Source: Sinorhizobium meliloti (GTDB taxonomy: Bacteria; Pseudomonadota; Alphaproteobacteria; Rhizobiales; Rhizobiaceae). From it: DNA of 32,000 nt. Positions 4,525-20,877 of this stretch are shown here, one piece after another (positions within the stretch are counted from its first letter, which is position 1; each line of letters opens with the position of its first letter). The DNA lies in contig NZ_JAGIOS010000003.1 of assembly GCF_017876815.1 (NCBI RefSeq), forward strand, positions 90,001 through 122,000, given 5' to 3'. Position numbers and translations under genes: made by a program. The notes below the pieces were generated by a model. The model was given only the letters and a program-made list of their open reading frames with translations. It had not been told where the DNA came from and made no database searches.

Positions 4525-4545
4525 AAGTTACGCAAGGAGGTAGGC

Positions 4546-4872
4546 GTGACCACTCCCATACCGCGTGTGATGGTTCCGGGCTCGGCGACAAAAAACGAAG
4601 TGTTCACGGTCAAGGCCATCATCCAGCACCAGATGGAGACGGGGCTGCGCACCGATTCCACGGGCAAGACGATCCCGCGGAAGATCATCAATCAGTTCGT
4701 CTGCCGTTACGGCGGAGTCGAGGTCTTCCGTACCGATCTGCACGAAGCCGTCTCGGCCAATCCGTTCCTTGAGTTCCAGTTGCTCGCGACGGGAAACGGT
4801 CTTCTTGAGTTCTCCTGGCGGGAGGACGGCGGCGCGACCTATTCGCTGTATCACGACATAGTGGTCACCTGA
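4546..4872 (+). CDS. soxZ: SoxZ sulfur carrier complex subunit
   Basis: 108 aa. VKAIIQHQMETGLRTDSTGKTIPRKIINQF and AVSANPFLEF match the conserved SoxZ core. GTG start preceded by AGGAGG at 5 nt. Confidence 0.85.
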   Translation: MTTPIPRVMVPGSATKNEVFTVKAIIQHQMETGLRTDSTGKTIPRKIINQFVCRYGGVEVFRTDLHEAVSANPFLEFQLLATGNGLLEFSWREDGGATYSLYHDIVVT

Positions 4873-4873
4873 C

Positions 4874-5245
4874 ATGAAGCGGGAACGGGCGGCCGCGACC
4901 GTCTCGCGTGCGAAGGGCCTCGCAGCCGAAATCCGGTGGTTGCTCGGTATTTCGCTTTGCGCGATCCTCCTGTTTCCCGAAAGGTCCGCTCCTGCGGAAG
5001 TGAGCCAAGGCGCGCAGATCGCCGCGACCTGCGCGTCCTGTCACGACCCGACTGGCGGCGGGCTGGCCATCCCGCCGATTGCGGCATTGGACGAACGGGC
5101 TATCGTGAAAGCCATGCTCGCCTTTCGTGCAAGTGAAAGCCCCAGCCATGTGATGCATGCGGTCGCATTGTCGCTCAGTGACGACGAGCTGGCCGCGACA
5201 GCGCGCTATCTCGCTGACAGAGCCAAAGCCGGGAGGCAGCCGTGA
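4874..5245 (+). CDS. Monohaem c-type cytochrome, FccA/SoxE-like small subunit of sulfide dehydrogenase
   Basis: One CxxCH (CASCH) after a signal-like hydrophobic segment. Class-I cytochrome c layout. Starts 1 nt after the soxZ stop and overlaps the next gene by GTGA, so translationally coupled to the flavoprotein. Confidence 0.75.
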   Translation: MKRERAAATVSRAKGLAAEIRWLLGISLCAILLFPERSAPAEVSQGAQIAATCASCHDPTGGGLAIPPIAALDERAIVKAMLAFRASESPSHVMHAVALSLSDDELAATARYLADRAKAGRQP

Positions 5246-6516
5246 CGGATTGGACGCGTCGCCAGATCGGCGCCCTGGCCGGAGGAGCGCTGCTGGCGGT
5301 GGCTGCACCACACACTGTTCGCGGTCAGGGACGGGCTAAGGTTGTAGTGATCGGCGGCGGCATCGGCGGCGCAACGGTTGCCCGATACCTCGGCGACATG
5401 AAGTCAATTGACGTCACACTGATCGAACCGAACTCCACCCACGTCACCTGCTTCTTCAGCAGCCACTACCTTGCCGGTCTTCGCTCGCTCGCCTCCCTGA
5501 CTTTCGGCCTGGAGACGCTGGCCGAAGGCCACGACATAACGATCATCCGCGACAGCGCCGTGGCGATCGACCCCGCCGGAAGGGCTGTCGAGCTTCGCGG
5601 CGGCACAAAGCTCTCCTATGACCGCCTCGTCGTCGCCCCGGGGATCGCCTTCAAGTTCGGCGAGATCGAGGGCTATGATGAGGACGCGGCAAAGATCATG
5701 CCGCATGCCTGGATTGCCGGACCCCAGAGTGAACTGCTGCGCCGGCAGCTCGAAAGCATGGACGACGGCGGTGTGTTCGTTATCGCTGCGCCTCCAAACC
5801 CGTTCCGCTGCCCGCCAGCCCCATATGAGCGGGCCTCGCTGGTCGCTTACTATTTCAAACAGTTCAAACCGAAATCGAAGATACTCATTCTCGACGCGAA
5901 GGATCAGTTTTCGGGTCAGGAACTGTTCCAGGATGCGTGGTCGCGTCACTATCCGGGCATAATTGAATGGCTACCTTCTCAGTTCACCGGGGCCATCAAA
6001 GCCGTAAATGTCGCGGCGCGATCGGTGGTCACAGAAGGCGAGACGTTCAGGGCGGCAGTCGCCAATATTATTCCTGCCCAGAAGGCGGGCCTCATCGGCG
6101 AGAAGGCAGGTCTTACGGACGCATCCGGCTGGTGCCCGGTCGATCCAGTGACGTTCGAGTCGACGTTGCAGCCCGGCATCCATGTCGTAGGCGACTCAAT
6201 TATCGGCGGCGACATGCCGAAGTCTGCCTTTTCTGCCAACAGCCAGGCCAAAGCATGCGCTTTTGGCATTGCGGCTTCCCTCACGGGTTCGCCTCAGTTT
6301 CCGCCGCACCTGTTCAACTCGTGCTACACGTTTCTAGCGCCCGACGACGCTTTCACCAATGCCCTTACCTTCGCACCCGAGGGCGGAAGGATAAAAACCG
6401 TGAAAATGTTCATCAGCAAGGTGGGCGAGAGCGCTGAGGTCCGCCGCCGCACCGCCCTTCACGCCGTGGGCTGGTATTCCGCCTTCACTGCAGACGTGTT
6501 CGGCGGTGGCCCCTGA
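5242..6516 (+). CDS. fccB: Flavocytochrome c sulfide dehydrogenase flavoprotein subunit (FccB/SoxF family)
   Basis: Tat signal TRRQIGALAGG. FAD fold KVVVIGGGIGGATVARYL. Family-typical FRCPPAPYERASLVAYYFK and PKSAFSANSQAKACA. Confidence 0.85.
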   Translation: MTDWTRRQIGALAGGALLAVAAPHTVRGQGRAKVVVIGGGIGGATVARYLGDMKSIDVTLIEPNSTHVTCFFSSHYLAGLRSLASLTFGLETLAEGHDITIIRDSAVAIDPAGRAVELRGGTKLSYDRLVVAPGIAFKFGEIEGYDEDAAKIMPHAWIAGPQSELLRRQLESMDDGGVFVIAAPPNPFRCPPAPYERASLVAYYFKQFKPKSKILILDAKDQFSGQELFQDAWSRHYPGIIEWLPSQFTGAIKAVNVAARSVVTEGETFRAAVANIIPAQKAGLIGEKAGLTDASGWCPVDPVTFESTLQPGIHVVGDSIIGGDMPKSAFSANSQAKACAFGIAASLTGSPQFPPHLFNSCYTFLAPDDAFTNALTFAPEGGRIKTVKMFISKVGESAEVRRRTALHAVGWYSAFTADVFGGGP

Positions 6517-6787: not shown

Positions 6788-7258
6788 CTAGTACTTGCCC
6801 GGCTGCAGCACTGAACCGCTGTTGGACCAGGTAATGTATGCTTCGAGCGCCTTCATTGCCTCGGATTCGGGATCGATCTTCGCCCCTTGGTTCGGCTTCT
6901 CGATGCACCAGTTGATCATGTCGCGGAGGGTCGCGAACTTGGCCATCTGCGCCTGGAACTTCGGGAAGGATTGCGGGTGGGTGTCCGATGCCATCGGATG
7001 ACACATCGCGCAAGCCATGCCGGTTTTCGAGAGGTCGTCGGCAACGCCCATCGCTTCGGCCGTTGCGGCGTCGCCATGAAAGAGGAGGTCTCCTTTTCTT
7101 ACCTCCTCCATGAATGCTTCCTGGTAGAGCTTCAATTGCTCCGGCTTTACCGGATCTTTATGGGCGCTGCTCGGCCCCGCGAAAACGGCGGCAATGGCAA
7201 TTCCCCCCACCAGGCTGAAGCGCCGCAGTGAACAGCGGATTTTCGAGTGGGTTGTCAT
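6788..7258 (-). CDS. Secreted monohaem c-type cytochrome
   Basis: Start moved to the ATG at 7258 (MTTHSKIR..), preceded by GGAGGAAGG. The 224-aa track ORF would overlap the upstream gene. Signal peptide ..IAAVFAGPSSA. Single CAMCH haem site. C-terminal WCIEKPNQGAKIDPESEAMKALEAYI. Confidence 0.8.
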   Translation of the reverse strand: MTTHSKIRCSLRRFSLVGGIAIAAVFAGPSSAHKDPVKPEQLKLYQEAFMEEVRKGDLLFHGDAATAEAMGVADDLSKTGMACAMCHPMASDTHPQSFPKFQAQMAKFATLRDMINWCIEKPNQGAKIDPESEAMKALEAYITWSNSGSVLQPGKY

Positions 7259-7271
7259 GACCCTTCCTCCG

Positions 7272-8408
7272 CTAGTATGGCCACATGTTGTCGGCGATCC
7301 TTGGGCGAATAACCTCCGAAACATGCTTGTCATGGTCTTCGGGGGACTGCACGAAGACTTCCTTGCGCCCCCACATGATATATTCCGTTTCCAACTGGTC
7401 GTTGGCCGCCACGTCGATCTTGCTCCAGCCGACTCCATCATAGGGATCGCCGGGGTCGACACGGATCATCGGCTTGGTGAGCTTCGGCAAGCCTTCCGGC
7501 GCATAGGGCCACGGCCAGGACGTGGCTAGCATGCCGATCGAACGCAATGTGCCGATCTCGTTGTAGAGGACCTGGTGCACGTGACCATGAATGTTCGTGA
7601 CCTTGGCATAGGGTTTCAGCACCTCATGGACTTCGCGCCAGTCACGCACCCAGAAGTTCCACGGTGGATAATATTCGTAGAGCGGATTGTGACTGAAGAT
7701 GACCACGGGTCTTGCCTTATCCCAGTCGGCCAAGGTCTTTTCCATCCAGTCGAGCTGGTCCCGACCGACACCGGCCCATGGCCCGGCGACTGTACCGTCC
7801 AGCGTGGCCATGTGGCCCATGCGCTCCTCGGGCGTCATATTCTTTGCAGTCCAGTAGTCCGGTCCGCGGCTGACGGTATCGAGGCCGATGAAGCGCACGC
7901 CCTTGTGGTCGAAGGTCCAGTTGGGCTGCCCAAACAGTTCGCCCCATTTCTTGCCCATATCGAGATACCAGTCGTGCTCGCCTGGGATGTAGTGTTTCGG
8001 GATCGTGATCACCTTGAGTAGATCTACGCCGAGTTCAAGCTCTTCGATCTTTCCGAGCTGGGCGAGGTCACCACCGAAGATCAGGAAATCTGCAGGGGGA
8101 TCCATCGCTTGGACTTCCTGCGCCGCACGCACGACTTTGTCGACGAAGCGTGTGTTAAGGGATCTGGGATAGAGATGGGTGTCGGAGATCCAGGCAAACT
8201 TGAACGGCGCCTCGGCGGCATTCGCGATATCGAGCGTGTTCAGCAGAGGCCACCATGCAAAGGCCTGGCCCACAGTTGCTGCGCCAAATACCAATGACCC
8301 GTGAATGAATGTGCGGCGGGTAATTTTCAATGAGTCGTCGGGCCGAACCCCTTCGGGTTGCAGCACGGAATGCATTTCGCGGCGAATGCGGTCAAGTTCG
8401 TCAGACAT
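7272..8408 (-). CDS. Tat-exported metallophosphoesterase (calcineurin-like fold)
   Basis: Start at 8408 (MSDELDR..), preceded by GGAGGAGA. Twin-arginine signal ITRRTFIHGSLVFGAATVGQAFA. Complete metallophosphoesterase motif set: ISDTH, GGDLAQ, GEHD, SHNP, GHVH. Confidence 0.85.
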   Translation of the reverse strand: MSDELDRIRREMHSVLQPEGVRPDDSLKITRRTFIHGSLVFGAATVGQAFAWWPLLNTLDIANAAEAPFKFAWISDTHLYPRSLNTRFVDKVVRAAQEVQAMDPPADFLIFGGDLAQLGKIEELELGVDLLKVITIPKHYIPGEHDWYLDMGKKWGELFGQPNWTFDHKGVRFIGLDTVSRGPDYWTAKNMTPEERMGHMATLDGTVAGPWAGVGRDQLDWMEKTLADWDKARPVVIFSHNPLYEYYPPWNFWVRDWREVHEVLKPYAKVTNIHGHVHQVLYNEIGTLRSIGMLATSWPWPYAPEGLPKLTKPMIRVDPGDPYDGVGWSKIDVAANDQLETEYIMWGRKEVFVQSPEDHDKHVSEVIRPRIADNMWPY

Positions 8409-8519: not shown

Positions 8520-9239
8520 CTACTTTTTCTTAAGCTCGATATCGAGCGTCGTGGCTTTTCCGCCTTCAACGCTGACGGACATTTCCGTTGGCCCGATGAA
8601 GGGCTGCACCGCAACGAGTTTATACTGTCCGGGAGGAACATCCGTTATCGAGTACTTTCCGTCGGGCCCGGTCACCGCGTAGTAGGGATTATCCACGACG
8701 AAAATCCATCCCTCCATCCAACCATGCGCGTCGCAGTCGATGCGCACTGTACCCGTCCGGGGTAATTCGACCGGTATGCGCTGCCCCTTGTTTGGAAGGG
8801 CCAGGTTAAAGGCGGTACGCTTGCCGTAATAGCCGTGCGTGTTATGAAGCACCGGGTCCGAGTTGACGACGTCGAGCGGTCCTGCGGCGATCACCTGCAC
8901 CTGAGGTTCAAAACGGCATTTCTCGTTGTCGAGTTCAGGGGTCTTGCCAGGCGTCGGCCATTCTTTTCCGGATGCCACCTCGACAAGATAAATGACCGCA
9001 CTCTCGACCGCTTGATTGGCACCCACGCGGATCAGCGGCTCATCCCGCGGCTCTCCGCAAACCTCAACATCTTTGGTCGGGATGATCTTCTTCATCGGGA
9101 CATTGTCACGAAAGACGACGGTGCCCTCGATGGACCCGCCTCCGGTGACAGCGCTTACCTCATAGGAAAGCGCAGGGGGCGCGGTCATGATAACTGCAGC
9201 AGTAATCAGAAACTCAGAGAAGAAGCGGTGCTTTACCAC
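8520..9239 (-). CDS. Secreted cupredoxin-like protein with carboxypeptidase-regulatory-like beta-sandwich domain
   Basis: GTG at 9239 follows GGGAGG at 6 nt. Signal-like N-terminus ..AAVIMTAPPALS. Candidate type-1 copper ligands: H in SDPVLHNTHG plus CDAHGWM (C-x2-H-x2-M, amicyanin-like spacing). C-terminal YYAVTGPDGKYSITDVPPGQYKLVAV is typical of CarboxypepD_reg domains. The rest of the 483-aa track ORF is antisense to sco. Confidence 0.7.
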   Translation of the reverse strand: MVKHRFFSEFLITAAVIMTAPPALSYEVSAVTGGGSIEGTVVFRDNVPMKKIIPTKDVEVCGEPRDEPLIRVGANQAVESAVIYLVEVASGKEWPTPGKTPELDNEKCRFEPQVQVIAAGPLDVVNSDPVLHNTHGYYGKRTAFNLALPNKGQRIPVELPRTGTVRIDCDAHGWMEGWIFVVDNPYYAVTGPDGKYSITDVPPGQYKLVAVQPFIGPTEMSVSVEGGKATTLDIELKKK

Positions 9240-9257
9240 AGCGAACCTCCCTTCCCT

Positions 9258-9482: not shown

Positions 9483-10091
9483 ATGGAGGGGCGGAACGAT
9501 CCGCATCGGGCTGCGACTTTCCACCGGGCGTTTTTTTATGGCCTCGTTTGCGCTGCGGTATTCGTCACCATGCCGGCTTTCGCTGCTTCGCCGGCGACTG
9601 TTGGTGGCCCATTCAATCTCATCGCACCCGATGGGGCCGTGGTGACCGATGCGAGGTTTCGCGGTAAATGGATGCTGGTCTTCTTCGGCTACACCTATTG
9701 TCCCGATCTCTGTCCGACGACGCTGAGCGAGATCGCTATCGCACTCGACAGGCTTGGCCCCGAGGCGGCGAAGGTGCAGCCGATCTTCATCACCGTCGAT
9801 CCCGAACGTGATACGCCTGAGGTAATGGGGCAATATACTGGCGCCATCGACCGGCGAATCTTGGGATTGACTGGCGATAAGCAGCAGATCGCCGCGGTGT
9901 CGCACAAATACGGCGCTTATAGCGAACGCCATCCACCGGATCCGGGCACCGGCGACTATGTCGTCGATCATAGTACTTACATCTACATCATGAATCCCAG
10001 CGGCAAGTTCGTTCGCGGCCTGCAGGCCGGCACGCCCGGTGATGCTATGGCCGACGCGCTGCGGCGTCTGATGCGGCAGAACGGCGAGTGA
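9483..10091 (+). CDS. SCO1/SenC family copper chaperone (thioredoxin fold)
   Basis: AAGGAGG lies 6 nt before the ATG. N-terminal membrane anchor. Copper-binding CPDLCP in [25 protein letters not shown]. Distal His in [17 protein letters not shown]. Confidence 0.9.
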
Positions 10092-11386
10092 TGGCCACGC
10101 TGACGGTGCGTGCGGATACGGGGAAGGCCATGCCTGAACATTTGTCGCATTCCAAAAGGTTCGGGACGGCGCAATATGATCACTTCTTCGCCGACGCTAT
10201 GGCGCAAATCCATGCCGAGCAGCGCTATCGTGTGTTCGCAGACCTCGAACGGATGGCCGGCGATTTTCCCCGCGCACTCTGGCATGGACCGAGCGGGTCG
10301 CAGGAAGTTATCATTTGGTGTTCGAACGACTATCTGGGCATGGGGCAGCACCCCAGCGTGATCGCCGCCATGACTGAAGCCGCGAAGCGTCTGGGAACAG
10401 GCGCGGGGGGCACGCGCAATATATCCGGAACCACTCATCCGCTGCTCGAGTTGGAGATCGAACTCGCGGATCTTCATCACAAGGAAGCGGCGCTGGTTTT
10501 CACCTCAGGATATGTCTCAAACCAGACAGGCATCTCCACGATTGCAAAGCTGGTCCCCGATTGTGTCATCCTCTCGGATGCGCTCAACCATAATTCGATG
10601 ATCGAGGGTATTCGGCAGTCGGGCTGCGAAAAGCGGATCTTCCGTCACAATGATCACCGCCACCTCGAGGAATTGCTGAGGACGGTGGGGCGGGGGCGGC
10701 CGAAATTGATCGTATTCGAAAGCCTCTATTCGATGGATGGCGATATCGCTCCGATTCGCCGCATCTGCGATCTTGCCAAATATTACGGGGCCATGACTTA
10801 CCTCGATGAGGTCCATGCCGTCGGCATGTACGGCCCGCGCGGTGGCGGCATCGCTGAACGAGACCGTGTCATGCACCGGATCGATGTTATCGAAGGAACG
10901 CTTGCCAAGGCCTTCGGCTGCCTTGGTGGCTACATAGCGGGAACCGTCACCCTCATCGATGCGGTTCGCTCCTACGCGCCGGGGTTCATATTCACCACGG
11001 CTTTACCGCCACCAATTTGTGCCGCGGCCACCGCCGCGATCCGCCATCTGAAGGTGTCTCACTCTGAGCGATGCGCTCATCAGGACCGCGTTCAGCGGGT
11101 AAAGGCAGAGCTAAACGGGGCGAGGCTGCCGGTCATGGCCAGTGGCAGTCACATTGTTCCCCTGCGCGTCGGCGATCCCGCGAAGTGCAAGGCAGCGAGC
11201 GATATGCTGCTCGAGGCTCATCGTATCTACATCCAGCCGATCAACTATCCTACCGTGGCGAGGGGAACCGAGCGGCTGCGCATCACGCCCTCTCCGTGCC
11301 ACGACGACATCATGATCAGTCAACTCGTGGCCGCGCTCAGCGAGGTCTGGGATGAACTCGGGCTGCCACGCGGAAGTGCCGCCTAG
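10091..11386 (+). CDS. hemA: 5-aminolevulinate synthase (ALAS, C4 haem pathway)
   Basis: [51 protein letters not shown] and the PLP-lysine motif EGTLAKAFG. The ATG at 10091 overlaps the sco stop (TGATG). Alternative starts are GTG 10088 and ATG 10130. Canonical ALAS would align from about QYDHFF. Confidence 0.9.
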
Positions 11387-11502: not shown

Positions 11503-13143
11503 ATGACGGCCAAGGAGATCAGGCTCGCTTTCCGGGCGCGCGATAGCATGCTGCATGGGATCGAGACGCTTGCACGCGCCGTCGCTGTCACGCTTGGCCC
11601 CCGGGGTCGAAACGTCGCCATCAACCGCTCCTTCGGCACAAAAATAACTAAGGACGGCGTGACGGTAGCAAGAGAAATCGAACTCGAGGACAAGTTCGAG
11701 GACATGGGCGTTCAGTTGCTCAGGCAGGTCGCCATCAAAACCTCGTATCAGGCGGGCGACGGAACGACCACCGCGGTGGTCCTCGCCGACGCAATTCTCA
11801 GGGGCGGTGTCCGAGCGGTCACTGCTGGCATGAACCCGATGGACCTGAAGCGCGGGGTTGATCGTGCCGTCGAGGCAGTCGTCGCGGAGTTGAAACAAAA
11901 TGCTAGATCTGTCGCTTCAAATGTCGAGATCGCGCAGGTCGCCACGATTTCGGCCAACGGAGATCGGGAGATCGGCCAGATCATCGCCGATGCGATGGCG
12001 GAGGTCGGCAAAAACGGCGTGATCATGATCGAGGAAGGGAGATCGCTCGAAACTGAAAGCGAAGTCATCACCGGGATCCAGTTCGACCGCAGCTACATCT
12101 CTCCCTATTTCGTCACCAACCGAGACAAAATGCGGGTGGAAATGGAAGAGGCACTCATTCTCGTTTGCGAGACGAAGCTGTCGAGCCTTAGCCAAATTTT
12201 GCCGCTTCTGGAAAAGGTCGTAGAGGCTGACAAGCCGCTTCTCATCATCGCCGAGGACTTCGAGGCTGAAGTCAGGGCGGCGCTTGTTGTCAACAGGCTC
12301 CGTGGCGGCCTCAAAGTGGCTGCTGTCAAGGCGCCGGCCTATGGCGAGCTCCGCAAGGCGATCCTGCAAGACATAGCACTGCTCACCGGCGGAACGGTTA
12401 TCTCGGAGGAGCTAGGTCTTAAGCTCGAGAGCATATCGCTCGACCGCCTCGGACGGGCCCGGAAGGTTAGAGTCGACAAACAAAATACCACGATCGCGGA
12501 AGGAGGCGGGTCAAGCGTGGAAATCGCTGGGCGGATCGCTGCGATCGGGGCGCAGCTCGAGCTAACTACGTCCGACTTTGATCGGGAAAAACTTCAGGAG
12601 CGGCTGGCACGGCTCTCCGCCGGGATTGCTGTGATCCGCGTCGGCGGCGCGACCGAGTCGGCGGTCAGGGAGAAGAAGGACCGCATCCGCAACGCCATGC
12701 ACGCCACCCGTGCCGCCGTAGAGGAGGGCATCCTGCCGGGCGGTGGGGTCGCGCTGCTGCGCGCAAGCAAGGCGATCCGGACTTTGAAGGTCGGGAACCT
12801 CGACCAGCAGGCCGGCATCAATATCGTCAAGGAAGCCGTAATGTGGCCGGCGAAGCAGATTGCGTCCAATGCGGGCGAGGAGGGCTCGGTCGTGGCCGCT
12901 AGAATTCTCCAAAACGATGACTACGGCTGGGGTTACGATGCGCAGGCTGGAACCTTTCGCGATCTTTTGGCGGCAGGTATTGTCGATCCCGCCAAAGTCG
13001 TGCGCACGGCGCTCCAAGGTGCCGCCTCCGTGGCCGGCCTCATGATCATGACGGAAGCGATGTTAGCCGAGGTGCCCGGCCCGCCGCCGCCTGAGCTTCC
13101 CGGCCATCATGACCATGAGGATAATCTCGACATTGATTTCTAG
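11503..13143 (+). CDS. groEL: Chaperonin GroEL (Cpn60), divergent copy with no adjacent groES
   Basis: ATG at 11503 preceded by [58 protein letters not shown] and [11 protein letters not shown] are all present. The C-terminus is ..[22 protein letters not shown] rather than a GGM repeat. Confidence 0.9.
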
Positions 13144-13888: not shown

Positions 13889-14042
13889 ATGACGATGCGC
13901 GAGTTGATGAGCGGGTTACTGGCGCATCGAGAAGTCGAACCAGGGCGAAAAGATCGATCCCGTGATGGAGGCGATGAAGGCGCTCGAGACGTACATCACC
14001 TGATCGAACACCGGCTCGGAGTTGGTGCCACGCAAATACCAG
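13889..14042 (+). pseudogene. Relic of the 3' third of a paralogue of the cytochrome c gene at 6788-7258
   Basis: The relic reads TMRELMSG, then a frameshift, then YWRIEKSNQGEKIDPVMEAMKALETYIT*SNTGSELVPRKY. The intact protein reads TLRDMINWCIEKPNQGAKIDPESEAMKALEAYITWSNSGSVLQPGKY. In-frame TGA at 14001-14003 where the intact gene has TGG. No haem site and no start codon. Confidence 0.65.
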
Positions 14043-14152: not shown

Positions 14153-15607
14153 TTGGCAGAGACTGGGATGGAGCTGCGCGGCAACTTTGCGAACGTTGAC
14201 CTGGATGCGCTGGTCGACCACCGGGTCGTGCGGACCTGGCTCTATTTCGGCATGTTCTGGCTGATGGTGACGCCATCCGTTGGCGTTTTGATATCGAGCA
14301 CCTTCAACTATCCCGACTATCTCGGCTCGGGGAACCTCGAGCTCACCTTCGGCCGGCTGCGCCCGGTCCACGTCAACGGTGTTATCTTCGGCGCCTTCTC
14401 GACGCTTTTCATAGGCCTTTGCTACTATCTCGTGCCGCGTCTGTCGGGGGTGCGGGTGATATGGTCAGAGTGGTCGGTTCTTCTCGCATGGGTCTGGAAC
14501 ATCGCAACACTTGCCGGTTTGGTCGGCTTGCTGATCGGCGACAGTGACGGTTTGGAAGCCGGAGAGCTTCCGCTATACGCTAAAGTCGCATTCTTCATCG
14601 TGGTGGGTGTTGCTACCGCGCAGTTCCTGATCACGATCAGTCGAAGGCTCGAGCCAGCGATCTATGTCGCGCTGTGGTACCTGATCGCCACTTTCGTGTG
14701 GACGACGATGAACTTCGTGCTTGGAAGCTTCATCCTGCCATACACGATCTCGGGCATCAACAGCGCCGCCTTCCATGGCCTCTATCTCCACTACATCGTT
14801 GGGCTGTGGCTAACGCCCGCAGGCTACGTGATCATCTACTATTTCCTGCCGGTCAGCGCGCGAAATCCGCTCTATGCCCATAAGCTCTCGCTGGTAGGCT
14901 TCTGGTCCCTGGCATTGTTCTACCCGTTCGTCGGCATCCACCATTACCTCTACAGCCCGATCGCCGACTGGGCCGAGACCTTGGCCGTCGTCACGTCGAT
15001 GCTGCTGATCATTCCGGTGTGGACGGTGCTGGTGAACTTCTTCGGCACCATGATGGGCAAGTGGCATGAGTTCGGCAGAAACCTGCCGGCGAAGTTCCTG
15101 ATCATGGGCTCGCTCATGTATCTCGTCGGCTGCTTCCAAGGCTCGACCGAGGCGCTGCGGCAGGTGCAGCAGCCGACCCATTTCACCGATTTCGTCATCT
15201 CGCATTCGCATCTTACCGTATTCGGCACCTTCGTCGTCTGGGCGATGGGGGGCCTCGTCTATACTTGGCCGCGGCTGTTCGGGCGCGAACTCTGGTCATT
15301 CAAGCTCGGCAACTGGTCGTTCTGGCTGATCACAGTCGGCATTGCGACCATGGGCCTGGTTCTCACAGCGGGCGGCCTGCAGCAGGGTTACCAATGGATG
15401 AATGGCGTCGAATGGCTCGACTCCCTCGTCTGGGTGAAGCCCTACTGGCTGGCGCGGACCCTGGCAGGTATCAGCATGGATATCGGCATTTCGCTGCTGG
15501 TGGTGAATCTGATGTTGACTGCGCTGACCAGCCCGGCGGCTGAGGCGCGACGCGTCGGCAGGCCGGAGGGGCCTATCCAGGCCCCGGCGGGAGGGCTCGC
15601 ACGGTGA
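14153..15607 (+). CDS. ccoN: cbb3-type (C-family) haem-copper oxidase subunit I, CcoN/FixN-like, divergent
   Basis: 12-TM protein. FGRLRPVHVNGVIFG (low-spin haem His). AAFHGLYLHY (CuB His). YPFVGIHHYLY has Y-x5-HH, the C-family cross-link Tyr plus two CuB His. ISHSHLTVFG carries the two haem His. TTG at 14153 lies 8 nt after GGGGAGG. Alternative start ATG 14168. Confidence 0.9.
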   Translation: MAETGMELRGNFANVDLDALVDHRVVRTWLYFGMFWLMVTPSVGVLISSTFNYPDYLGSGNLELTFGRLRPVHVNGVIFGAFSTLFIGLCYYLVPRLSGVRVIWSEWSVLLAWVWNIATLAGLVGLLIGDSDGLEAGELPLYAKVAFFIVVGVATAQFLITISRRLEPAIYVALWYLIATFVWTTMNFVLGSFILPYTISGINSAAFHGLYLHYIVGLWLTPAGYVIIYYFLPVSARNPLYAHKLSLVGFWSLALFYPFVGIHHYLYSPIADWAETLAVVTSMLLIIPVWTVLVNFFGTMMGKWHEFGRNLPAKFLIMGSLMYLVGCFQGSTEALRQVQQPTHFTDFVISHSHLTVFGTFVVWAMGGLVYTWPRLFGRELWSFKLGNWSFWLITVGIATMGLVLTAGGLQQGYQWMNGVEWLDSLVWVKPYWLARTLAGISMDIGISLLVVNLMLTALTSPAAEARRVGRPEGPIQAPAGGLAR

Positions 15608-17268
15608 ACGTTCGCTTCTTCGCGCTGTTCGCCGGCGTCTTCTGCATCACCCTTGCGGTGATCACGCAGGGCGTGCTGCCCTTCGTGGAGCCGTCCTCGC
15701 GAACTACGCGCGTGACCTCGGTGGTGCGCACGGATTTCGGCCAGCTGAAATGGATGGTTTCAGAGGCGACGGACTACACCGAGCAGCAGCTTCGCGGCCG
15801 CAATATCTATCTGCGCGAAGGCTGCTGGTACTGCCATTCCCAATTCGTGCGGCCAGTGACCGGCGAGATCCGCCGCTGGGGACCGGTGAGCGAGGCCGGC
15901 GAATACGCCTATGACGTGCCGCACCTGTTTGGCACACGCCGGATCGGACCAGACCTGACGCGCGTCGGCCTGAAATACAGCGACGAATGGCACCTGGCGC
16001 ACTTCTACGATCCGCGGATGCTGGTGCCGGACTCGATAATGGCGCCGTATCGCGGCCTCTTCCACGAGCCCGATGCAGCTGTCCGTATCGTTGACGACGG
16101 CGCTGGCAATCGGACCCTGGAAAGGACAGAGGTCACCGAGGGCATGTTCGACTTCGACAGCCAGCAGGCGATCCAGCTGACGCCGAATGCATCCGGGTTG
16201 CTGTTCGTGCCGCTGAAGGCGCGCGATAGAAAGCCGATCATCCTGACGCCGAACGACGAATACGCAGGCGAAACCGTCAGCATCGCGACGGAAACGGAAT
16301 CGGTGGCGGCGCTCATTTCTTACCTCCAGAAGCTCGGCACGAACCGAGGTAAATGGCGCGATCTTTTCGAGCCGCAAAGCCTGGAGGTCATGGATGCGAC
16401 GATGCCGCGCTCCGAGGAATGGATTGCTTATGGCAAGGAAGTCTATGAGCGCCGCTGCATCGGTTGCCACGGTGCCAAGGGCGACGGCAATGGGCCGGCC
16501 GCCACCTTCATGTATAACCAGCGGCCTAGGGATTTCACGTCCGCAGTCTTCAAGTTCAGGTTGACAAAGGAGCCCCTGCCCACGGACGGCGACATGCTGC
16601 GCACCATTACTCGCGGCATCCGCGGCACGGCAATGCCCCCTTGGTACGACCTGCCGCTCAACGATCGGCTGGCGGTGATCCAGTACATCAAGTATGAGCT
16701 AGCGGTTGACCGTTCCAATCCCGCCAATCCTTACGCTTTCTTCGTCGAGGAACCGCCTGGCCCACCCTTGTATATCGGGCGGCCGCCGATCCCGTCCCAG
16801 ACGATGCTGGACCGTGGCAAGGAGATTTGGCAGGTGGCGAAATGCTGGGAGTGCCATGGCCAAGGCGGCAAGGGAGACGGCGAGAAGGCTGCCGGCCTCA
16901 AGGATGATCTCGGGTTCGTCAGCGTGCCGGCCGACCTCACCAGCGGCCAATTCAAGTCTGGCCCGGCCGTCGAAGACATCTTCCGGACGATAACTACGGG
17001 CCTTAGCGGCACGCCGATGCCGTCCTACCGGAATGCATTTCCGGACGAGGACCGGTGGGCGCTTTCCTATTTCGTGGTAGCGCTTTCCGCCTATAAAGAC
17101 CCGCTCTCGCTGCAGCCGCTCCCGATCGATAAGGAGGCCCGCGCGGCGCTGAACGATCTGGAACTGGTCGCTGACAAGCCTGAGCGAGCGTATGTACCCG
17201 ATCCGTCGGTGCCAGCGTCCGGCCCGCCAGCGCCGCCTGCCGAAGAACAGGCACCCGCCGGAGGTTAG
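15604..17268 (+). CDS. Fused CcoO (monohaem) plus CcoP-like dihaem cytochrome c subunit
   Basis: GTGA overlap with ccoN. The N-terminal anchor plus EGCWYCHSQFVRP, GTRRIGPDLTRVGLKYSDEWHLAHFYDPR, SIMAPY and ALISYLQKLG make a full CcoO. Two further class-I haem domains follow (CIGCHGAKGDGNG and CWECHGQGGKGDG), then a Pro/Ala-rich tail. Three CxxCH in one 554-aa chain. Confidence 0.85.
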   Translation: MNVRFFALFAGVFCITLAVITQGVLPFVEPSSRTTRVTSVVRTDFGQLKWMVSEATDYTEQQLRGRNIYLREGCWYCHSQFVRPVTGEIRRWGPVSEAGEYAYDVPHLFGTRRIGPDLTRVGLKYSDEWHLAHFYDPRMLVPDSIMAPYRGLFHEPDAAVRIVDDGAGNRTLERTEVTEGMFDFDSQQAIQLTPNASGLLFVPLKARDRKPIILTPNDEYAGETVSIATETESVAALISYLQKLGTNRGKWRDLFEPQSLEVMDATMPRSEEWIAYGKEVYERRCIGCHGAKGDGNGPAATFMYNQRPRDFTSAVFKFRLTKEPLPTDGDMLRTITRGIRGTAMPPWYDLPLNDRLAVIQYIKYELAVDRSNPANPYAFFVEEPPGPPLYIGRPPIPSQTMLDRGKEIWQVAKCWECHGQGGKGDGEKAAGLKDDLGFVSVPADLTSGQFKSGPAVEDIFRTITTGLSGTPMPSYRNAFPDEDRWALSYFVVALSAYKDPLSLQPLPIDKEARAALNDLELVADKPERAYVPDPSVPASGPPAPPAEEQAPAGG

Positions 17269-17271
17269 CGC

Positions 17272-17496
17272 ATGCTCGGTTTTGAAGTTACCGGACCCTA
17301 TGTGGGCGCCATGCTGATGAGCCTGGCGGCCCTGTTCTTGTTCATCTGGGGCGTCCTGTCAGGCGCGTTGAGCGGCACCGACAAAGCCGCCAACGGGTTT
17401 TTTGAAAGGGAAATGGAAAATGAGCGATCTGCAGAGCAGCGATCCGGAGAGCCCGAGGCATCCGGAACTGGAGGTGCGTCAAAGCTCGCACCCTGA
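17272..17496 (+). CDS. Small single-TM protein, CcoS/FixS-like (alternatively CcoQ-like)
   Basis: ATG lies 3 nt after the ccoOP stop. One TM helix followed by FIWGVLSGALSGTDKAAN, resembling the CcoS pattern W-x3-SGQ-x-DD..A. Charged tail. The 3' 77 nt overlap the next ORF. Confidence 0.45.
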   Translation: MLGFEVTGPYVGAMLMSLAALFLFIWGVLSGALSGTDKAANGFFEREMENERSAEQRSGEPEASGTGGASKLAP

Positions 17497-17644
17497 ACTG
17501 GAGGACTATGCCGGCGGCCTGATACAGGCGCGTGTGGGGTTCATTCCGCTATGGCTTCTCGTCGTCTACATGCTGCTGTTCGGCTGGGGCCTGTATTACA
17601 TGTATGTCTATTGGGGCGGGCTCGGCCCCGGCCGTCTGTTCTAG
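17420..17644 (+). CDS. Small membrane protein resembling the detached N-terminal anchor domain of CcoP (FixP_N-like)
   Basis: ATG at 17420. The acidic N-terminus contains HPELE twice. EDYAGGLIQARVGFIPLWLLVVYMLLFGWGLYYMYVYW resembles the DGI..P.P.WW..F..T.....Y pattern of FixP N-terminal domains. No haem site. Confidence 0.45.
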   Translation: MSDLQSSDPESPRHPELEVRQSSHPELEDYAGGLIQARVGFIPLWLLVVYMLLFGWGLYYMYVYWGGLGPGRLF

Positions 17645-17677
17645 AAGACTGTCGCAAGGACCGTTAAGGCAGGAGTG

Positions 17678-17782
17678 ATGGAGATGTTGGTAGCCAAAAT
17701 TCTCCTTGGGGTCGCCGCATTGAACCTCCTTTTCCTGGCCTTCGAGGTGGCGATAAACGTGCTTCGTCTTTATTTCGGCTGA
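17678..17782 (+). CDS. Unannotated 34-aa single-TM mini-ORF
   Basis: AGGAG lies 2 nt before the ATG (an alternative ATG is two codons in). MEMLVAKILLGVAALNLLFLAFEVAINVLRLYFG. Below the ORF-track cutoff. Fits exactly into the gap in the operon. Confidence 0.3.
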   Translation: MEMLVAKILLGVAALNLLFLAFEVAINVLRLYFG

Positions 17783-17796
17783 CATAGGAGCAGCGG

Positions 17797-17919
17797 ATGC
17801 TACAGGACACCGTCTTCAAGCTCGCTGACGCCGGCTTGCCGCAGATGCTTGGGTTCCTCATCTATGGCGGCTGCACCGTCGGCTTTATCATCTATCTTTT
17901 CTATCTTGTGCGGCAATAG
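17797..17919 (+). CDS. Unannotated 40-aa single-TM mini-ORF (CcoQ/FixQ-like layout)
   Basis: TAGGAG lies 6 nt before the ATG. MLQDTVFKLADAGLPQMLGFLIYGGCTVGFIIYLFYLVRQ. A short polar N-terminus followed by one TM helix, as in FixQ. Confidence 0.35.
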   Translation: MLQDTVFKLADAGLPQMLGFLIYGGCTVGFIIYLFYLVRQ

Positions 17920-17938
17920 CGGCGCAGCGAAAACGCCA

Positions 17939-18667
17939 ATGTTCTACTACCTCGTGATCTTCGCCGCTGGATTTGCAGGCAGCTTTCATTGCATCGGCAT
18001 GTGCGGCGGCTTTGCCTGCGCGTTGGGCCGCGATCAGCGAGGCGGAGGCGCAACCCTCCTTCGCCACCTGCTCTATAATACCGGCCGATTGACAACCTAT
18101 TGCTTTCTGGGCGGGCTCGCCGGTGCGGTCGGTCAGGTCATCTGCACCACGCAAGGTGTAGCGGCGGCGCCGCTCTTTAACGGCTCCCTCGACATCGCCC
18201 AACGAATTCTCGCGATCGTCGCTGGCCTGCTCATGATTGCCATGGCGTTGCAGTTCTTCGGCTTGTTGCAGGTCTTTCATCGCCTTGCGATCGGATTTGG
18301 CGGCAGCACATTTGCTTTGTCCCTGCGCAGTCTGGTGACGGCCCGGAGTAGCGCCGCGCCGCTCGCCTTTGGCGTTTTCAACGGCTTCCTGCCATGTCCC
18401 CTGGTTTATGCCTTCGCCGCCCAGGCGGCGAGCACCGCCGGAGCGCTTCCCGGGTTCCTCGTCATGGCTTGGTTCGGATTGGGAACCTTCCCCGCGATGC
18501 TGATGATGGGCGGCGTTGGCCGGATACTCGGGCCAGCCGGGCGGCGGCGCGGCGTGCGGCTGGCTGGTGGCTTTATTCTTTTTCTCGGTCTCATCACGCT
18601 CGGCCGTGGTCTCCTGCCTTCTCACGCGCATATCGGCCTTGCCTGGCTGGGCGGACATTCCACATGA
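17939..18667 (+). CDS. DsbD_2 / TauE-SafE-like multi-pass membrane protein with paired-cysteine motifs
   Basis: Start set to ATG 17939 (MFYYLVIFAAGFAGSFHCIGMCGGF). HCxxMCGG motif in TM1 and FLPCPLVY in a later TM. About 6 TM helices. Its stop overlaps the ccoI start (ATGA). Confidence 0.75.
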   Translation: MFYYLVIFAAGFAGSFHCIGMCGGFACALGRDQRGGGATLLRHLLYNTGRLTTYCFLGGLAGAVGQVICTTQGVAAAPLFNGSLDIAQRILAIVAGLLMIAMALQFFGLLQVFHRLAIGFGGSTFALSLRSLVTARSSAAPLAFGVFNGFLPCPLVYAFAAQAASTAGALPGFLVMAWFGLGTFPAMLMMGGVGRILGPAGRRRGVRLAGGFILFLGLITLGRGLLPSHAHIGLAWLGGHST

Positions 18668-20877
18668 CTGCGCATGATCATATCCTCTGTAGCCATTGTT
18701 CGCTGCCCGTTGGCGTGCGCCCAATGGAGCGCAGGCTCGACGGTGAGGCTTGCACGTTCTGCTGCTACGGCTGTTGCATCGCCTTTCAGGTGAAGAGCGG
18801 CAGACACGAAGAATGGGAAGCCGCCTGGCTTCTGATCCAGCTTGGCGTGGGTGGCTTTCTCTCCATGAACATCATGATGTTCAGCCTCCTCCTCTATTCG
18901 GACGCATTCACCGGGGTCGATGCGGGCGTGCTGCCGTGGATTCACTTTTTGCTCTGGATCTTCGCGACGCCGGCGGTGGTGCTTCTCGGCGGACCCTATC
19001 TGCGCGAAATGTGGCTCAATGGCATGCAGGGACGAGTGACATCGTCGGCACTCATCGTGCTTGGCGTCGCTGCCGCTTACCTCTACTCGGCGTTTGCCGT
19101 GTTCGAGGGCAGCACGCATGTCTATTTCGACACCGCCGTGATGGTGCTGATGCTATTTACCGTTGGCCGCTATCTCGAGGCTGTTGGCCGCGCAAGGGCG
19201 GCGCGCGACCTCGAACCTCTTCTGGCCGCAGAAAGCGAGAGCGCGACCGTGGTCGATGGCGCGGCAGAGATCCGCGGTCCGGTGCGGGAGGTGTCGGCCG
19301 GCATGCTGGTGCGGGTTCGGCCAGGCGAGCGCATTCCGGTCGACGGCGTGGTTGTCGAGGGGGAATCGAACACCGATGAAGCCGTGATTACCGGAGAAAG
19401 CCGGCAAGTGACAAAGGGCGCCGGCTCCAAGGTGATTGCCGGCAGCATCAATATCGACGGCCCGCTTCTGATCCAAAGCAGCGCTGACGGAACCGCAACC
19501 CGCTGGGCGAGGATTTGCCGGTCGGTGCGCGAAGCGCTCGGCCGTCGCAGCCCAACCCAGCGCCTTGCCGATCGCGTCGTCGGCGTGTCCGTGCCGCTCG
19601 TCCTTGCCCTCGGCGGTCTGACGATCGTTTACTGGGCGCAGTCATTGCCGTTCGATCGGGCGTTGCTAATTGGCCTCTCGGTACTGGTGGTTGCCTGTCC
19701 TTGTGCCGTCGGCCTCGCTGCTCCGATGGCGACATCACTCGGCATCGGCCGGCTGGCGCGGCACGGCTGCCTCGTCCGCGATCCCGGCGTACTCGAGACC
19801 CTCGCACGTGTACGGTTACTCGCCTTCGACAAGACCGGCACTCTGACGGCGGGCAAAGCACGTCTAGTCGGCGTCTACGGCGAGGAGGTCGGCTTTGACC
19901 AAGTGCTGGCGCGCGCCGCCGGTCTGGAGCGCCTTTCCGAGCATGGTCTGGCGCAGGCCATCACGGCAGCCGCCGCTCAGCGGGACATCACGCCGCTCGT
20001 CACCAGCGATGTTCGGACGGTTCCCGGCCGTGGCATCCGCGGCAGCGCCGAAGGCCGGCCCGTGGCGGCAGGGAACGGCAGATTGATGAATGATCTGGGC
20101 TGGCCGCTTCCCCCGTCGCTGGCCGAGCGTGCGCGGTCGTTGGAGGCGAGCGGTCATTCGGTGGTCTATGTGGGTTGGGGCGAGCGGGTTCACGCCGTGC
20201 TGTCGCTCGACGACTCACCGCTTCCCGAGGCGCAGGCCGCGATCGCGGCGCTGCGCAAGCGCGGGCTCGACGCCACGCTGTTGACCGGCGACCTGGCGCA
20301 AGCGGCGGAGCGGATCGCGGCCTTGGTTGGGATCAAGGACGTCCAAGCCGGCCTTTCGCCGGAGGCCAAACGGCTGGCGCTGGATCGGCTCCGCCATGAC
20401 CACGTTTCGGTGGCGATGGTCGGCGATGGGCTGAATGACGGACCGGTCCTGGCCGCCGCAGATATCGGTATCGCCGTCGGCTCCGCCACAGATCTCGCCC
20501 GCGAGACTGCAGGGCTCGTGCTGCCTGCGGATGGATTTTGGATGCTGCCCTGGATCGTCGACGTGGCCCGCGCGGTCCGCAGGACCATCTTGGCCAACCT
20601 TATGTGGGCGTTCGGCTACAACCTCGTCGCGCTGACGTTCGCAGCATTCGGACTTCTGCAGCCAATCCTTGCGGCGGCGGTCATGGCCGGCTCGAGCATC
20701 CTCGTTGTGGTGAATTCGCTGCGGCTGGAGCGGCTGCCCGATCCTGTTCCAGCGCTCATGCCGGCGCAACGATCCGACATCAATGTGGAGCGCACACACA
20801 ACGTAAGCGGCATTTCCGCGATGGCCGGGCCGGCCGTCGGGCATGACCTTGCCACCCGTGGTCCGCTCGATCCTTAA
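18664..20877 (+). CDS. ccoI: Copper-translocating P1B-type ATPase, CcoI/FixI-like
   Basis: Start at ATG 18664 (MTAHDHILCSHCSLP..CTFCCYGCCIAF), giving the Cys-rich CcoI-type N-terminal metal-binding domain with no HMA domain. TGES, CPC in TM6, DKTGTLT, GDGLNDGP. N-x6-YN and M-x2-SS-x5-N form the Cu(I) signature. SEHGL replaces the usual SEHPL. Confidence 0.9.
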   Translation: MTAHDHILCSHCSLPVGVRPMERRLDGEACTFCCYGCCIAFQVKSGRHEEWEAAWLLIQLGVGGFLSMNIMMFSLLLYSDAFTGVDAGVLPWIHFLLWIFATPAVVLLGGPYLREMWLNGMQGRVTSSALIVLGVAAAYLYSAFAVFEGSTHVYFDTAVMVLMLFTVGRYLEAVGRARAARDLEPLLAAESESATVVDGAAEIRGPVREVSAGMLVRVRPGERIPVDGVVVEGESNTDEAVITGESRQVTKGAGSKVIAGSINIDGPLLIQSSADGTATRWARICRSVREALGRRSPTQRLADRVVGVSVPLVLALGGLTIVYWAQSLPFDRALLIGLSVLVVACPCAVGLAAPMATSLGIGRLARHGCLVRDPGVLETLARVRLLAFDKTGTLTAGKARLVGVYGEEVGFDQVLARAAGLERLSEHGLAQAITAAAAQRDITPLVTSDVRTVPGRGIRGSAEGRPVAAGNGRLMNDLGWPLPPSLAERARSLEASGHSVVYVGWGERVHAVLSLDDSPLPEAQAAIAALRKRGLDATLLTGDLAQAAERIAALVGIKDVQAGLSPEAKRLALDRLRHDHVSVAMVGDGLNDGPVLAAADIGIAVGSATDLARETAGLVLPADGFWMLPWIVDVARAVRRTILANLMWAFGYNLVALTFAAFGLLQPILAAAVMAGSSILVVVNSLRLERLPDPVPALMPAQRSDINVERTHNVSGISAMAGPAVGHDLATRGPLDP

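Follow-up and report, generated by a model that had tools for sequence, protein, structure and literature searches.

Results

Gene content and layout of the operon

The window analyzed here is a stretch of 32,000 nucleotides from Sinorhizobium meliloti (NCBI RefSeq assembly GCF_017876815.1, contig NZ_JAGIOS010000003.1, positions 90,001 to 122,000 of the forward strand). In the region 14153-20877 it holds a compact operon of eight genes on the plus strand, which is predicted to encode a divergent cytochrome c oxidase of the cbb3 type (C family of haem-copper oxidases) together with its own maturation proteins (Table 1). An earlier reading of the letters alone (the sequence-only reading) had described the order as ccoN, a ccoO fusion, a CcoS-like gene, a FixP_N-like gene, two very short open reading frames (mini-ORFs), a DsbD_2-type gene and ccoI, and the open reading frames (ORFs) matched this description. 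The overlaps that it named are real: the TGA of ccoN overlaps the GTG start of the fusion gene at 15604 (GTGA), and the TGA of the DsbD_2 gene overlaps the ATG of the ATPase gene at 18664 (ATGA), so that the DsbD_2 gene is translationally coupled to the ATPase gene. The ATG of the CcoS-like gene at 17272 lies 3 nt past the stop of the fusion gene (17268), with GGAGG ahead of it. All eight ORFs are intact, with overlapping junctions and Shine-Dalgarno sequences, and a single compact cbb3-type operon is supported. In the gene table for CP140933, the CcoS-like ORF and mini-ORF 1 are missing; the PLSDB tables are incomplete, and the original record may differ.

Table 1. The oxidase operon and related features of the window
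Feature	Coordinates	Strand	Details
CcoN-like catalytic subunit I, C-family haem-copper oxidase	14168..15607	+	479 aa from ATG 14168; TTG 14153 possible
CcoO-like monohaem and C-terminal dihaem cytochrome c fusion	15604..17268	+	554 aa, ~61 kDa, three CxxCH
CcoS/FixS-like single-transmembrane maturation protein	17272..17496	+	74 aa; GGAGG 7 nt upstream
FixP_N-like membrane anchor protein, probably structural subunit	17420..17644	+	74 aa; conserved motif, family-level FixP_N
Mini-ORF 1, single-transmembrane peptide	17675..17782	+	32-35 aa; likely start ATG 17684 after AGGAG
Mini-ORF 2, single-transmembrane peptide, possibly CcoQ-like	17797..17919	+	40 aa; AGGAG 7 nt upstream
DsbD_2-family polytopic membrane protein	17939..18667	+	242 aa; PGAP name TauE/SafE; Pfam DsbD_2
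CcoI/FixI-like Cu(I)-type P1B ATPase	18664..20877	+	737 aa; TIGR01511, TIGR01525
SoxA/TsdA-like cytochrome c gene, 3'-end remnant, directly upstream of ccoN	13918..14003	+	28 codons; WRIEKSNQGEKIDPVMEAMKALETYIT and stop codon
Periplasmic cupredoxin-like protein, C-terminal CarboxypepD_reg domain	8520..9239	-	CarboxypepD_reg Pfam; weak amicyanin matches
Metallophosphoesterase with twin-arginine (Tat-type) signal motif	7272..8408	-	378 aa; Pfam Metallophos 5.6e-12; RRTF motif
Monohaem cytochrome c, SoxA/TsdA type	6788..7258	-	156 aa; Pfam SoxA-TsdA_cyt-c (PF21342) 1.2e-9
SCO1/SenC-type copper chaperone	9483..10091	+	Pfam SCO1-SenC 7.9e-50
Extra 5-aminolevulinate synthase (hemA)	10130..11386	+	TIGR01821 668 bits
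Extra GroEL chaperonin	11503..13143	+	groL annotation in CP140933
soxYZEF-like genes: SoxY-like, SoxZ, small cytochrome c, flavocytochrome c sulfide dehydrogenase flavoprotein	4075..6516	+	TIGR04487/04488, TIGR04490; FCSD_central 9.7e-46

The catalytic subunit

CcoN matched Pfam COX1 (3.7e-72) and aligned with the CcoN proteins of Pseudomonas stutzeri and Rhodobacter capsulatus at 1e-49 to 1e-52. Its score on TIGR00780 was 227.6 bits, below the cutoff of this curated equivalog (583.15), which places it by sequence in the family in the broad sense and outside the canonical ccoN equivalog. When CcoN was aligned to the P. stutzeri protein (structures 3mk7 and 5djq, whose numbering is used here), all six histidine ligands, H60, H207, H257, H258, H345 and H347, were found in the window CcoN, and these ligands of the low-spin haem b, haem b3 and CuB were invariant across 61 members of its clade. 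The peptide FYPFVGIHH, also invariant in the clade, aligned with the cross-link tyrosine and the histidines that follow it (Y251...H257 H258, Y-x5-HH); the tyrosine is on helix VII, unlike in the A and B families, where it is on helix VI. E122 (a calcium ligand) and the four K-channel-analogue residues T215, Y223, S240 and Y317 were likewise invariant in the 61 members. The sequence-only reading was right that CcoN keeps its ligands, and the peptides that it quoted, FGRLRPVHVNGVIFGAFS and AAFHGLYLHY, are present; the alignment corrects the location of the CuB histidine, which is the histidine of YLHY (H207) and not that of AAFHG. Throughout the clade alignment, G, G, Q and Q take the place of the canonical W203, H243, E323 and N333.

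Some of these replacements could suit an enzyme that does not reduce O2, such as a nitric-oxide reductase, since E323 and H243 of canonical cbb3 oxidases are both replaced; the C family is also the haem-copper oxidase family closest to the cytochrome c-dependent nitric-oxide reductases (cNOR), and NorB chains gave weak matches. However, G243 and Q323 were the commonest states among 68 diverse C-family representatives, and the similarity to NorB was 1e-5, compared to 1e-50 for CcoN. The cNOR enzymes have an FeB with Glu ligands and no cross-link tyrosine, whereas here the three CuB histidines and this tyrosine are invariant, and the locus also has genes for a Cu(I)-type ATPase and an SCO chaperone. 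Because of the CuB ligands, the tyrosine, the copper ATPase and SCO, we consider an activity other than O2 reduction highly improbable, and a nitric-oxide reductase was rejected on the ligand pattern.

A neighbor-joining tree was built from 72 full-length CcoN sequences, 69 of them representatives of 50% identity clusters. The window CcoN paired with its own cluster representative, followed by a 971-aa triple fusion of CcoN, CcoO and dihaem cytochrome c and by one further lineage, and the branch of S. meliloti FixN and R. capsulatus CcoN was far away. A Thiobacillus protein fell inside the 90% cluster of the clade representative. The tight clustering with rhizobial FixN that would have refuted the sequence-only reading was not seen, and the claim that CcoN lies far from rhizobial FixN held on three measures: 30% identity to canonical S. 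meliloti FixN, a distant clade, and 228 bits against the 583-bit cutoff of TIGR00780. That the operon is an ordinary fixNOQP paralogue, its oddity arising from annotation or fusion artefacts, would fit the several fixNOQP copies for which S. meliloti is known (three FixN places in strain 1021) and the generic PGAP names, cbb3 subunits I and II. It does not fit the 30% identity to the FixN of the same species, the distant clade and the score far under the TIGR00780 cutoff, nor a fusion, a split FixP_N-like gene and mini-ORFs that recur in over 50 loci of several classes. The ordinary fixN paralogue is ruled out for all practical purposes by identity, phylogeny and conserved synteny together.

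Other divergent relatives were met during these comparisons. In the sister lineage of the triple fusion (locus L079, 10001-12916; protein P0123), CcoN, CcoO and the dihaem part form one 971-aa polypeptide, followed by a 98-aa ORF; near this gene there was none of the upstream trio described below, no DsbD_2 gene and no Cu-type ATPase gene. Some C-family representatives with 28-34% identity (e.g., P0154) are without most or all metal ligands (for instance H207S, Y251Q, H257V, H345V) and could be CcoN homologues that have degenerated or taken on another role. A further divergent cbb3 subunit I, with 31-34% identity to R. capsulatus CcoN, is encoded on Ralstonia solanacearum megaplasmids and Paraburkholderia fungorum plasmids, where its genes are often unannotated or named "hypothetical".

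The CcoO-dihaem fusion

The fusion protein consists of an N-terminal transmembrane (TM) helix, a FixO domain (residues 52-247, 1.9e-45), a dihaem domain (residues 274-494) and a Pro-rich tail, and Pfam recognized two cytochrome c domains in it besides FixO. The CcoO part is membrane-anchored, has one CxxCH and is encoded directly after ccoN. CcoO chains in the PDB matched the fusion at 1e-30 to 1e-32 over its N-terminal part only (residues 55-155); as the match picks up again near residue 218, an insertion of about 40 residues lies between. Residues ~153-217 make up a beta-rich insertion in the CcoO domain that is not in the solved CcoO structures. An AlphaFold2 (AF2) model of the fusion, for which 25 aligned sequences were used, was confident (pLDDT 76-90) at residues ~150-240, the insertion included.

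The sequence-only reading had named this gene ccoO::ccoP. The fusion of CcoO to a dihaem cytochrome c stood up to the analysis, but homology of the second part to CcoP had been overstated. In the PDB comparison the dihaem domain matched none of the solved CcoP chains, and its best match was a stand-alone dihaem cytochrome c, 6h5l_B (2e-44), which we take to be a Kuenenia stuttgartiensis protein. BLASTP against S. meliloti FixP gave E ~1e-3 around the haem motifs only. Because of these three results, the domain is not a demonstrated CcoP orthologue, and it is likely to be CcoP-like in role. The dihaem domain scored 45 bits on TIGR00782 (cutoff 180), and the fusion scored 180 bits on PRK14486 (6e-53; cutoff 447), which puts the fusion outside the latter equivalog. 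No gene of the operon encodes a single-protein dihaem CcoP/FixP, that is, a FixP_N anchor with two cytochrome c domains.

The small genes

Members of the CcoS-like family have the motif F[IV]W[AG]V.SG.F.D.E...Y...E after one TM helix, and Pfam FixS was matched by all 16 members scanned (best 2e-8). For comparison with the canonical system, FixG, FixH, FixI, FixS and FixQ of S. meliloti 1021 were recovered from the 1021 pSymA ORFs by motif and position; in tblastn, the FixS query matched the position of the CcoS-like gene in seven loci. The FixP_N-like family has the motif GG.I.ARHG....WLL.VY..LF.W..YY...YWGGLGPG; Pfam FixP_N was matched by 6 of 12 members (best 6.6e-4), and the FixP_N-like ORF gave a weak BLASTP alignment to FixP residues 29-51. 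Both assignments of the sequence-only reading thus hold at the family level.

The two mini-ORFs are kept as well, the first with the motif LNL.FL..E.A.NV in 29 loci and the second with F..WVAYLA..K in 31, and the loci of both span Alpha-, Beta- and Gammaproteobacteria, Acidobacteria, Rokubacteria and SAR324. Because they are conserved across phyla, we regard them as real genes rather than chance ORFs; on metagenomic contigs, gene callers predict them. One member of the mini-ORF 2 family had a weak FixQ match (E=0.02), and the 1021 FixQ query found no match by tblastn in the window or in ~78 related loci.

Maturation genes

The ATPase scored 448 bits on TIGR01511 (cutoff 397) and 511 bits on TIGR01525, and its TM motifs CPC, YN and MxxSS are present. 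An N-terminal CxHCxLP...FCCYGC, with a weak match to PF12156 (E=0.022), was kept in every locus examined. Since PGAP's start at 18724 would cut off the CxHC of this conserved segment, we place the start at 18664. ATPases of the related loci were 33-36% identical to 1021 FixI. The gene ahead of it encodes a DsbD_2-type protein, as had been proposed (Pfam DsbD_2, 3.3e-43). Three motifs, SFHCxGMCGGFAC, NGFLPCPLVYA and FGLGTFPAML, were invariant in 58 homologues of this protein, and no relative of it was found in NCBIfam or the PDB.

The sequence-only reading had also stated that CcoG, CcoH and a separate CcoP are absent, and this was confirmed and extended to the related loci: tblastn with the 1021 proteins (E<=0.01) gave no match to CcoG/FixG or CcoH/FixH in the window or in ~78 related loci. 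In the three contexts annotated with Pfam (L078, L080 and L081), neither the FixG-type family nor FixH was found.

Distribution of the operon

The region 14153-20877 was 100% identical to the pSymA-type megaplasmids of strains RU11/001 and SM11; in about 25 further S. meliloti plasmids the identity was 99.2-99.9%. A more sensitive plasmid search with ccoN and the next gene gave 44 matching records, including those of BL225C and Rm41 and others from S. americanum (95.7%), S. fredii, Rhizobium gallicum and Phyllobacterium (~76%); pSymA of S. meliloti 1021 was not among the 44. With a canonical CcoN query, four FixN places were found in SM11 and three in pSymA of 1021, and plasmid CP050559 carries an annotated canonical ccoNOQP as well as the divergent operon. 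The operon is therefore a fourth, accessory C-family locus beside the ordinary fixNOQP loci. The annotation breaks the ccoN/ccoO stretch into several fragments in CP130046 and CP130055, and in NZ_CP021813 just 28% of it is left (92.6% identity); in some S. meliloti strains, then, the locus may have decayed locally or been read with sequencing errors.

A scan of species-representative genomes gave 74 loci, of which 69 encode a CcoN with more than 55% identity (61-97%). The identity was 96-97% in Ensifer and Mesorhizobium; further alphaproteobacterial loci belong to Rhizobium, Bradyrhizobium, Methyloceanibacter and Kiloniellales, and others to Steroidobacteraceae, Thiocapsa, Chromatiaceae, Arhodomonas, Burkholderiaceae and Rubrivivax. 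Loci outside the Proteobacteria were found in SAR324, in Rokubacteria, in a metagenome-assembled genome (MAG) of Acidobacteria and in the Gemmatimonadota genus Ca. Kutchimonas. Where the downstream sequence was long enough (54 loci), the gene content was directly seen to be conserved: the fusion and the FixP_N-like gene were present in all 54, the CcoS-like gene in 53, and the DsbD_2 and ATPase genes in 51 each. This is a widespread, conserved and apparently so far uncharacterized cbb3 subfamily.

The sequence-only reading had associated this architecture with non-proteobacterial cbb3 clusters. Since the same eight-gene order is found mainly in Alpha-, Beta- and Gammaproteobacteria, Ensifer, Mesorhizobium, Rhizobium and Bradyrhizobium included, the conserved order is predominantly proteobacterial and this association is contradicted. 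An import of the operon from a non-proteobacterial phylum could still be argued from the members in Acidobacteria, Rokubacteria, Gemmatimonadota and SAR324, and from the nearest sister representative, a triple fusion without taxon assignment. However, Proteobacteria (Hyphomicrobiales, Kiloniellales, Steroidobacteraceae, Chromatiaceae and Burkholderiales) account for most of the loci and for every one of the closest, the G+C content of the operon (59-67%) is near that of most of the window, and the transfer that can be demonstrated took place within rhizobia, between Ensifer and Mesorhizobium, at 94% identity. We therefore regard such an import as improbable.

Upstream partners and sulfur-linked genes

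Upstream of the oxidase genes, a recurrent set of partners was observed, about which the sequence-only reading was silent: a cupredoxin, a metallophosphoesterase and a SoxA/TsdA-like cytochrome (the trio), and SoxYZ and FccAB. They tell more of the function than the missing ccoG and ccoH do. Of the 58 genome loci with enough upstream sequence, 39 had the metallophosphoesterase gene and the gene of a ~150-aa SoxA/TsdA-type cytochrome immediately ahead of ccoN and on its strand, and the CarboxypepD_reg-domain cupredoxin gene usually preceded this pair. The linkage was also seen from the side of the metallophosphoesterase, in 80 metagenome loci: the cupredoxin gene was directly upstream of it in 60 of 61 loci, 43 of 59 loci had a ccoN of the clade at most 1.5 kb downstream, and 51 of 59 had oxidase genes at any position. 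In divergent metagenome loci, a SoxZ-like gene comes after the cytochrome gene. Of 69 genome loci, 27-30 had SoxY-like/SoxZ genes and flavocytochrome c sulfide dehydrogenase no more than 10 kb away from the oxidase.

The N-terminal part of the cupredoxin had weak matches to amicyanin (E 0.1-0.8) in which all four type-1 copper ligands aligned, and LHNTH...CDAHGWM was at least 95% conserved in 57 homologues. In the metallophosphoesterase, the motifs of the binuclear site (DxH, GD, GEHD in place of GNHD, H and GHxH) were very strongly conserved. Only the generic Metallophos domain was recognized, with CpdA/GpdQ-like proteins as its best NCBIfam and PDB relatives, and Pfam, NCBIfam and the PDB showed no 5'-nucleotidase C-terminal domain of the kind in SoxB-type thiosulfohydrolases; we hypothesize a SoxB-like role for it. 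The cytochrome aligned to SoxA (1h31_A, 2e-4) and TsdA (4wq7_A), with INWC at the active-site Cys region, a motif kept in 50 homologues. In this alignment its Cys is the counterpart of the haem-ligand Cys of TsdA.

The genes for SCO, HemA and GroEL were linked to the operon in alphaproteobacterial loci, with hemA and groEL in the rhizobial ones, and the GroEL linkage was also found in one metagenomic contig (L078). SCO, a second hemA and an extra groEL travel with the oxidase, as if the island brought its own support for haem, copper and folding. Steroidobacteraceae and other gammaproteobacterial MAGs (L024-L031, L057 and L061) have neither the metallophosphoesterase nor the SoxA-like cytochrome upstream; their place, about 500 bp ahead of ccoN, is taken by a FixP-like cytochrome c and a distant homologue of the cupredoxin/CarboxypepD_reg protein, which makes a second variant of the partners. 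At 11-3766 of the window, genes for an efflux permease of the resistance-nodulation-division (RND) type and a TetR-family regulator flank the sox-like genes; no homologue of them was found in other related loci, and they are probably outside the module.

Arrangement in S. meliloti

In S. meliloti/Ensifer, the block from 6687 to ~13900, which holds the trio, SCO, hemA and groEL, is inverted compared to S. fredii and Mesorhizobium. The remnant directly ahead of ccoN matches the C-terminus of the intact cytochrome gene at 6788-7258. The stretch 13918-20842 was 94% identical to Mesorhizobium, compared to 70-79% for the flanking genes, which indicates that the oxidase operon itself was recently exchanged among rhizobia.

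Control by FixK/FNR was rejected: the window has no TTGA-N6-TCAA, and the motif CTTGATATTAGAAyC has the wrong spacing for FNR. This motif lies in the intergenic region 9240-9482, between the divergent SCO and cupredoxin genes, and is common to the aligned Ensifer and Rhizobium-type loci; the same region has a perfect 9-bp inverted repeat, TGAAGGAAA-N7-TTTCCTTCA. Repeat and motif are candidate operator or promoter elements.

The inversion bears on whether the S. meliloti operon is silent or decaying, a passenger that has lost its native promoter and partners and has no function in its host. The cytochrome remnant, the lack of an FNR/FixK box in the window, the strains with fragmented annotation or with 28% of ccoN-ccoO, and strain 1021, which is without the operon, are what one would expect of a passenger. 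The eight intact ORFs with their overlapping junctions and Shine-Dalgarno sequences are not, nor is a sequence that is 99-100% identical across 27 S. meliloti plasmids, and the intact trio, SCO, hemA, groEL and soxYZEF-like genes still lie within 10 kb. We consider a passenger unlikely. Because of the inversion and the remnant, the missing box and the single weak promoter-like site, both the expression and the function of the operon in S. meliloti itself are uncertain.

Discussion

Taken together, the sequences indicate that the operon is intact and accessory, that it encodes a divergent cytochrome c:O2 oxidoreductase of the C family (cbb3 type) along with dedicated maturation proteins, and that it belongs to an uncharacterized conserved subfamily; we put the probability of this interpretation at roughly 0.7. 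Several observations weigh against it. The AF2 model of the fusion was poor as a whole (mean pLDDT 55, with the haem-binding parts below 50), and the S. meliloti copies of the CcoS-like (FixS E 0.1-1) and FixP_N-like proteins were not individually significant. Gly and Gln stand where canonical CcoN has H243 and E323; yet these are the majority states in non-canonical C-family lineages. The trio is missing in about a quarter of the loci, and a few strains have fragmented or partial copies of the operon. In S. meliloti, the inversion parts the operon from the trio and from the ancestral upstream region and leaves a gene remnant ahead of ccoN; no FixK/FNR box was found anywhere in the window, and scans for promoters and terminators did not exceed what shuffled sequence would give, with one weak promoter-like site only.

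From the domains and their order, the following mechanism may be proposed. CcoN would hold haem b and a haem b3-CuB site with the His-Tyr cross-link and would presumably reduce O2, while electrons would enter through the CcoO-fused dihaem domain, in the role of CcoP. The FixP_N-like TM anchor and the two peptides of 30-40 aa are probably small structural subunits. In maturation, the CcoS-like protein would serve cofactor insertion, and the CcoI-like Cu(I) P1B ATPase, with the nearby SCO, would supply CuB. The Cys/His/Met-rich DsbD_2 protein stands in the place that CcoG (a cupric reductase) and CcoH hold in canonical clusters; it could be a copper permease or carrier that feeds the ATPase, or a thiol-redox shuttle. 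Electrons would come from the neighboring sulfur-oxidation-like proteins.

The canonical CcoNOQP/FixNOQP and CcoGHIS/FixGHIS systems are those of P. stutzeri (3mk7/5djq), R. capsulatus (6xkw), Bradyrhizobium japonicum and S. meliloti (fixNOQP1-3). With them, the operon shares the CcoN ligand set, the helix-VII tyrosine, E122 and most K-channel-analogue residues, a monohaem CcoO subunit, a CcoS-type protein, a CcoI-type copper ATPase and three c-type haems feeding haem b. It differs from them in a CcoN of 30-35% identity with G243, Q323, G203 and Q333 for H, E, W and N, in a dihaem domain of another lineage that is fused to CcoO while the FixP_N-like anchor is a separate 74-aa gene, in two extra mini-subunit genes with no clear CcoQ, in the lack of a FixK box, and in having a DsbD_2 protein before the ATPase and no CcoG or CcoH.

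Variation in cbb3 clusters as such is not new. In 2008, Ducluzeau, Ouchane and Nitschke reportedly divided CcoN into "proximal" and "distal" subtrees with differing sets of subunits, and are said to have found only CcoN and CcoO universal, with many clusters lacking ccoQP. Papers citing that work described two cbb3 forms in one genome (PMC8788666; PMC7029218), and the "distal" form of Sideroxydans ES-1 was up-regulated on thiosulfate (PMC8788666); the papers with these labels list neither locus tags nor subunits. CcoO-cytochrome c fusions are already a recognized annotation class, PRK14485/PRK14486 (NCBIfam "putative bifunctional" subunit I/II and subunit II/cytochrome c). As the subfamily is widespread and generically annotated, its existence will be no surprise to specialists. 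The subunit and assembly architecture and the sulfur-linked context are undescribed: the literature searched, which did not include the Ducluzeau 2008 paper itself, held no description of this operon type, its mini-ORFs, its DsbD_2 protein or the upstream trio, and nothing relevant was found on the S. meliloti operon, on CcoO-cytochrome fusions or on a metallophosphoesterase with cbb3.

The surroundings resemble the Sox and TsdA systems in a SoxA/TsdA-type haem domain with its Cys, a metallophosphoesterase (of the SoxB superfamily), a SoxY-like protein, SoxZ and flavocytochrome c sulfide dehydrogenase. Unlike in Sox, the cytochrome is monohaem and has no SoxX, SoxCD is missing and a cupredoxin is part of the unit; unlike SoxB, the metallophosphoesterase is a 378-aa CpdA/GpdQ-like protein with GEHD and not of the 5'-nucleotidase type; and the SoxY-like protein is under both SoxY model cutoffs and ends in ...TNGCL instead of GGCGG. 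A "soxYZEF-like" accessory cluster was reported by Sugawara et al. (2013) in 7 of 33 S. meliloti strains and in both S. fredii strains studied (PMC4053727). It has the same gene names and order as 4075-6516, names and order being the basis of the match; the paper mentions no oxidase, and thus no linkage to a cbb3 variant or to the trio.

With a cupredoxin, a metallophosphoesterase, a SoxA/TsdA-type cytochrome, SoxYZ-like proteins and FccAB as its usual partners, the enzyme is suggested to be a dedicated terminal acceptor of periplasmic reduced-sulfur oxidation, and it is probably the terminal oxidase of a mobile sulfur-oxidation module. More tentatively, and with less than even odds in our judgment, the module could be a self-contained route from sulfur to oxygen, in which the His/Cys monohaem cytochrome, the Tat-exported binuclear metallophosphoesterase as a SoxB analogue, the amicyanin-like cupredoxin and the SoxYZ-like carrier would form a so far undescribed enzyme set that oxidizes thiosulfate or carrier-bound sulfur, and electrons would pass directly to the CcoO-fused dihaem domain of a dedicated cbb3 variant. 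Maturation would then proceed without CcoG and CcoH, through a DsbD_2-type copper or thiol transporter, and the module would move between rhizobia and occur in many soil and sediment Proteobacteria.

The cbb3 oxidases have been studied almost entirely through the proteobacterial CcoNOQP/CcoGHIS paradigm, while the operon type described here abounds in metagenomes from soils and sediments and in many rhizobia that can be cultured. It departs from the paradigm in three respects, the electron-entry subunit, the small subunits and a maturation set without the cupric reductase CcoG and without CcoH, and it thereby offers a genetically tractable test of which assembly steps are truly universal. Strains SM11, RU11/001, BL225C and Rm41 carry the operon and are tractable hosts. 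For S. meliloti, the distribution means that the content of the respiratory chain varies between common laboratory strains. The linkage to the trio and the SoxYZ-like genes points to an unrecognized route from reduced sulfur to O2 which, if true, would matter for rhizobial ecology and for the annotation of sulfur cycling in metagenomes.

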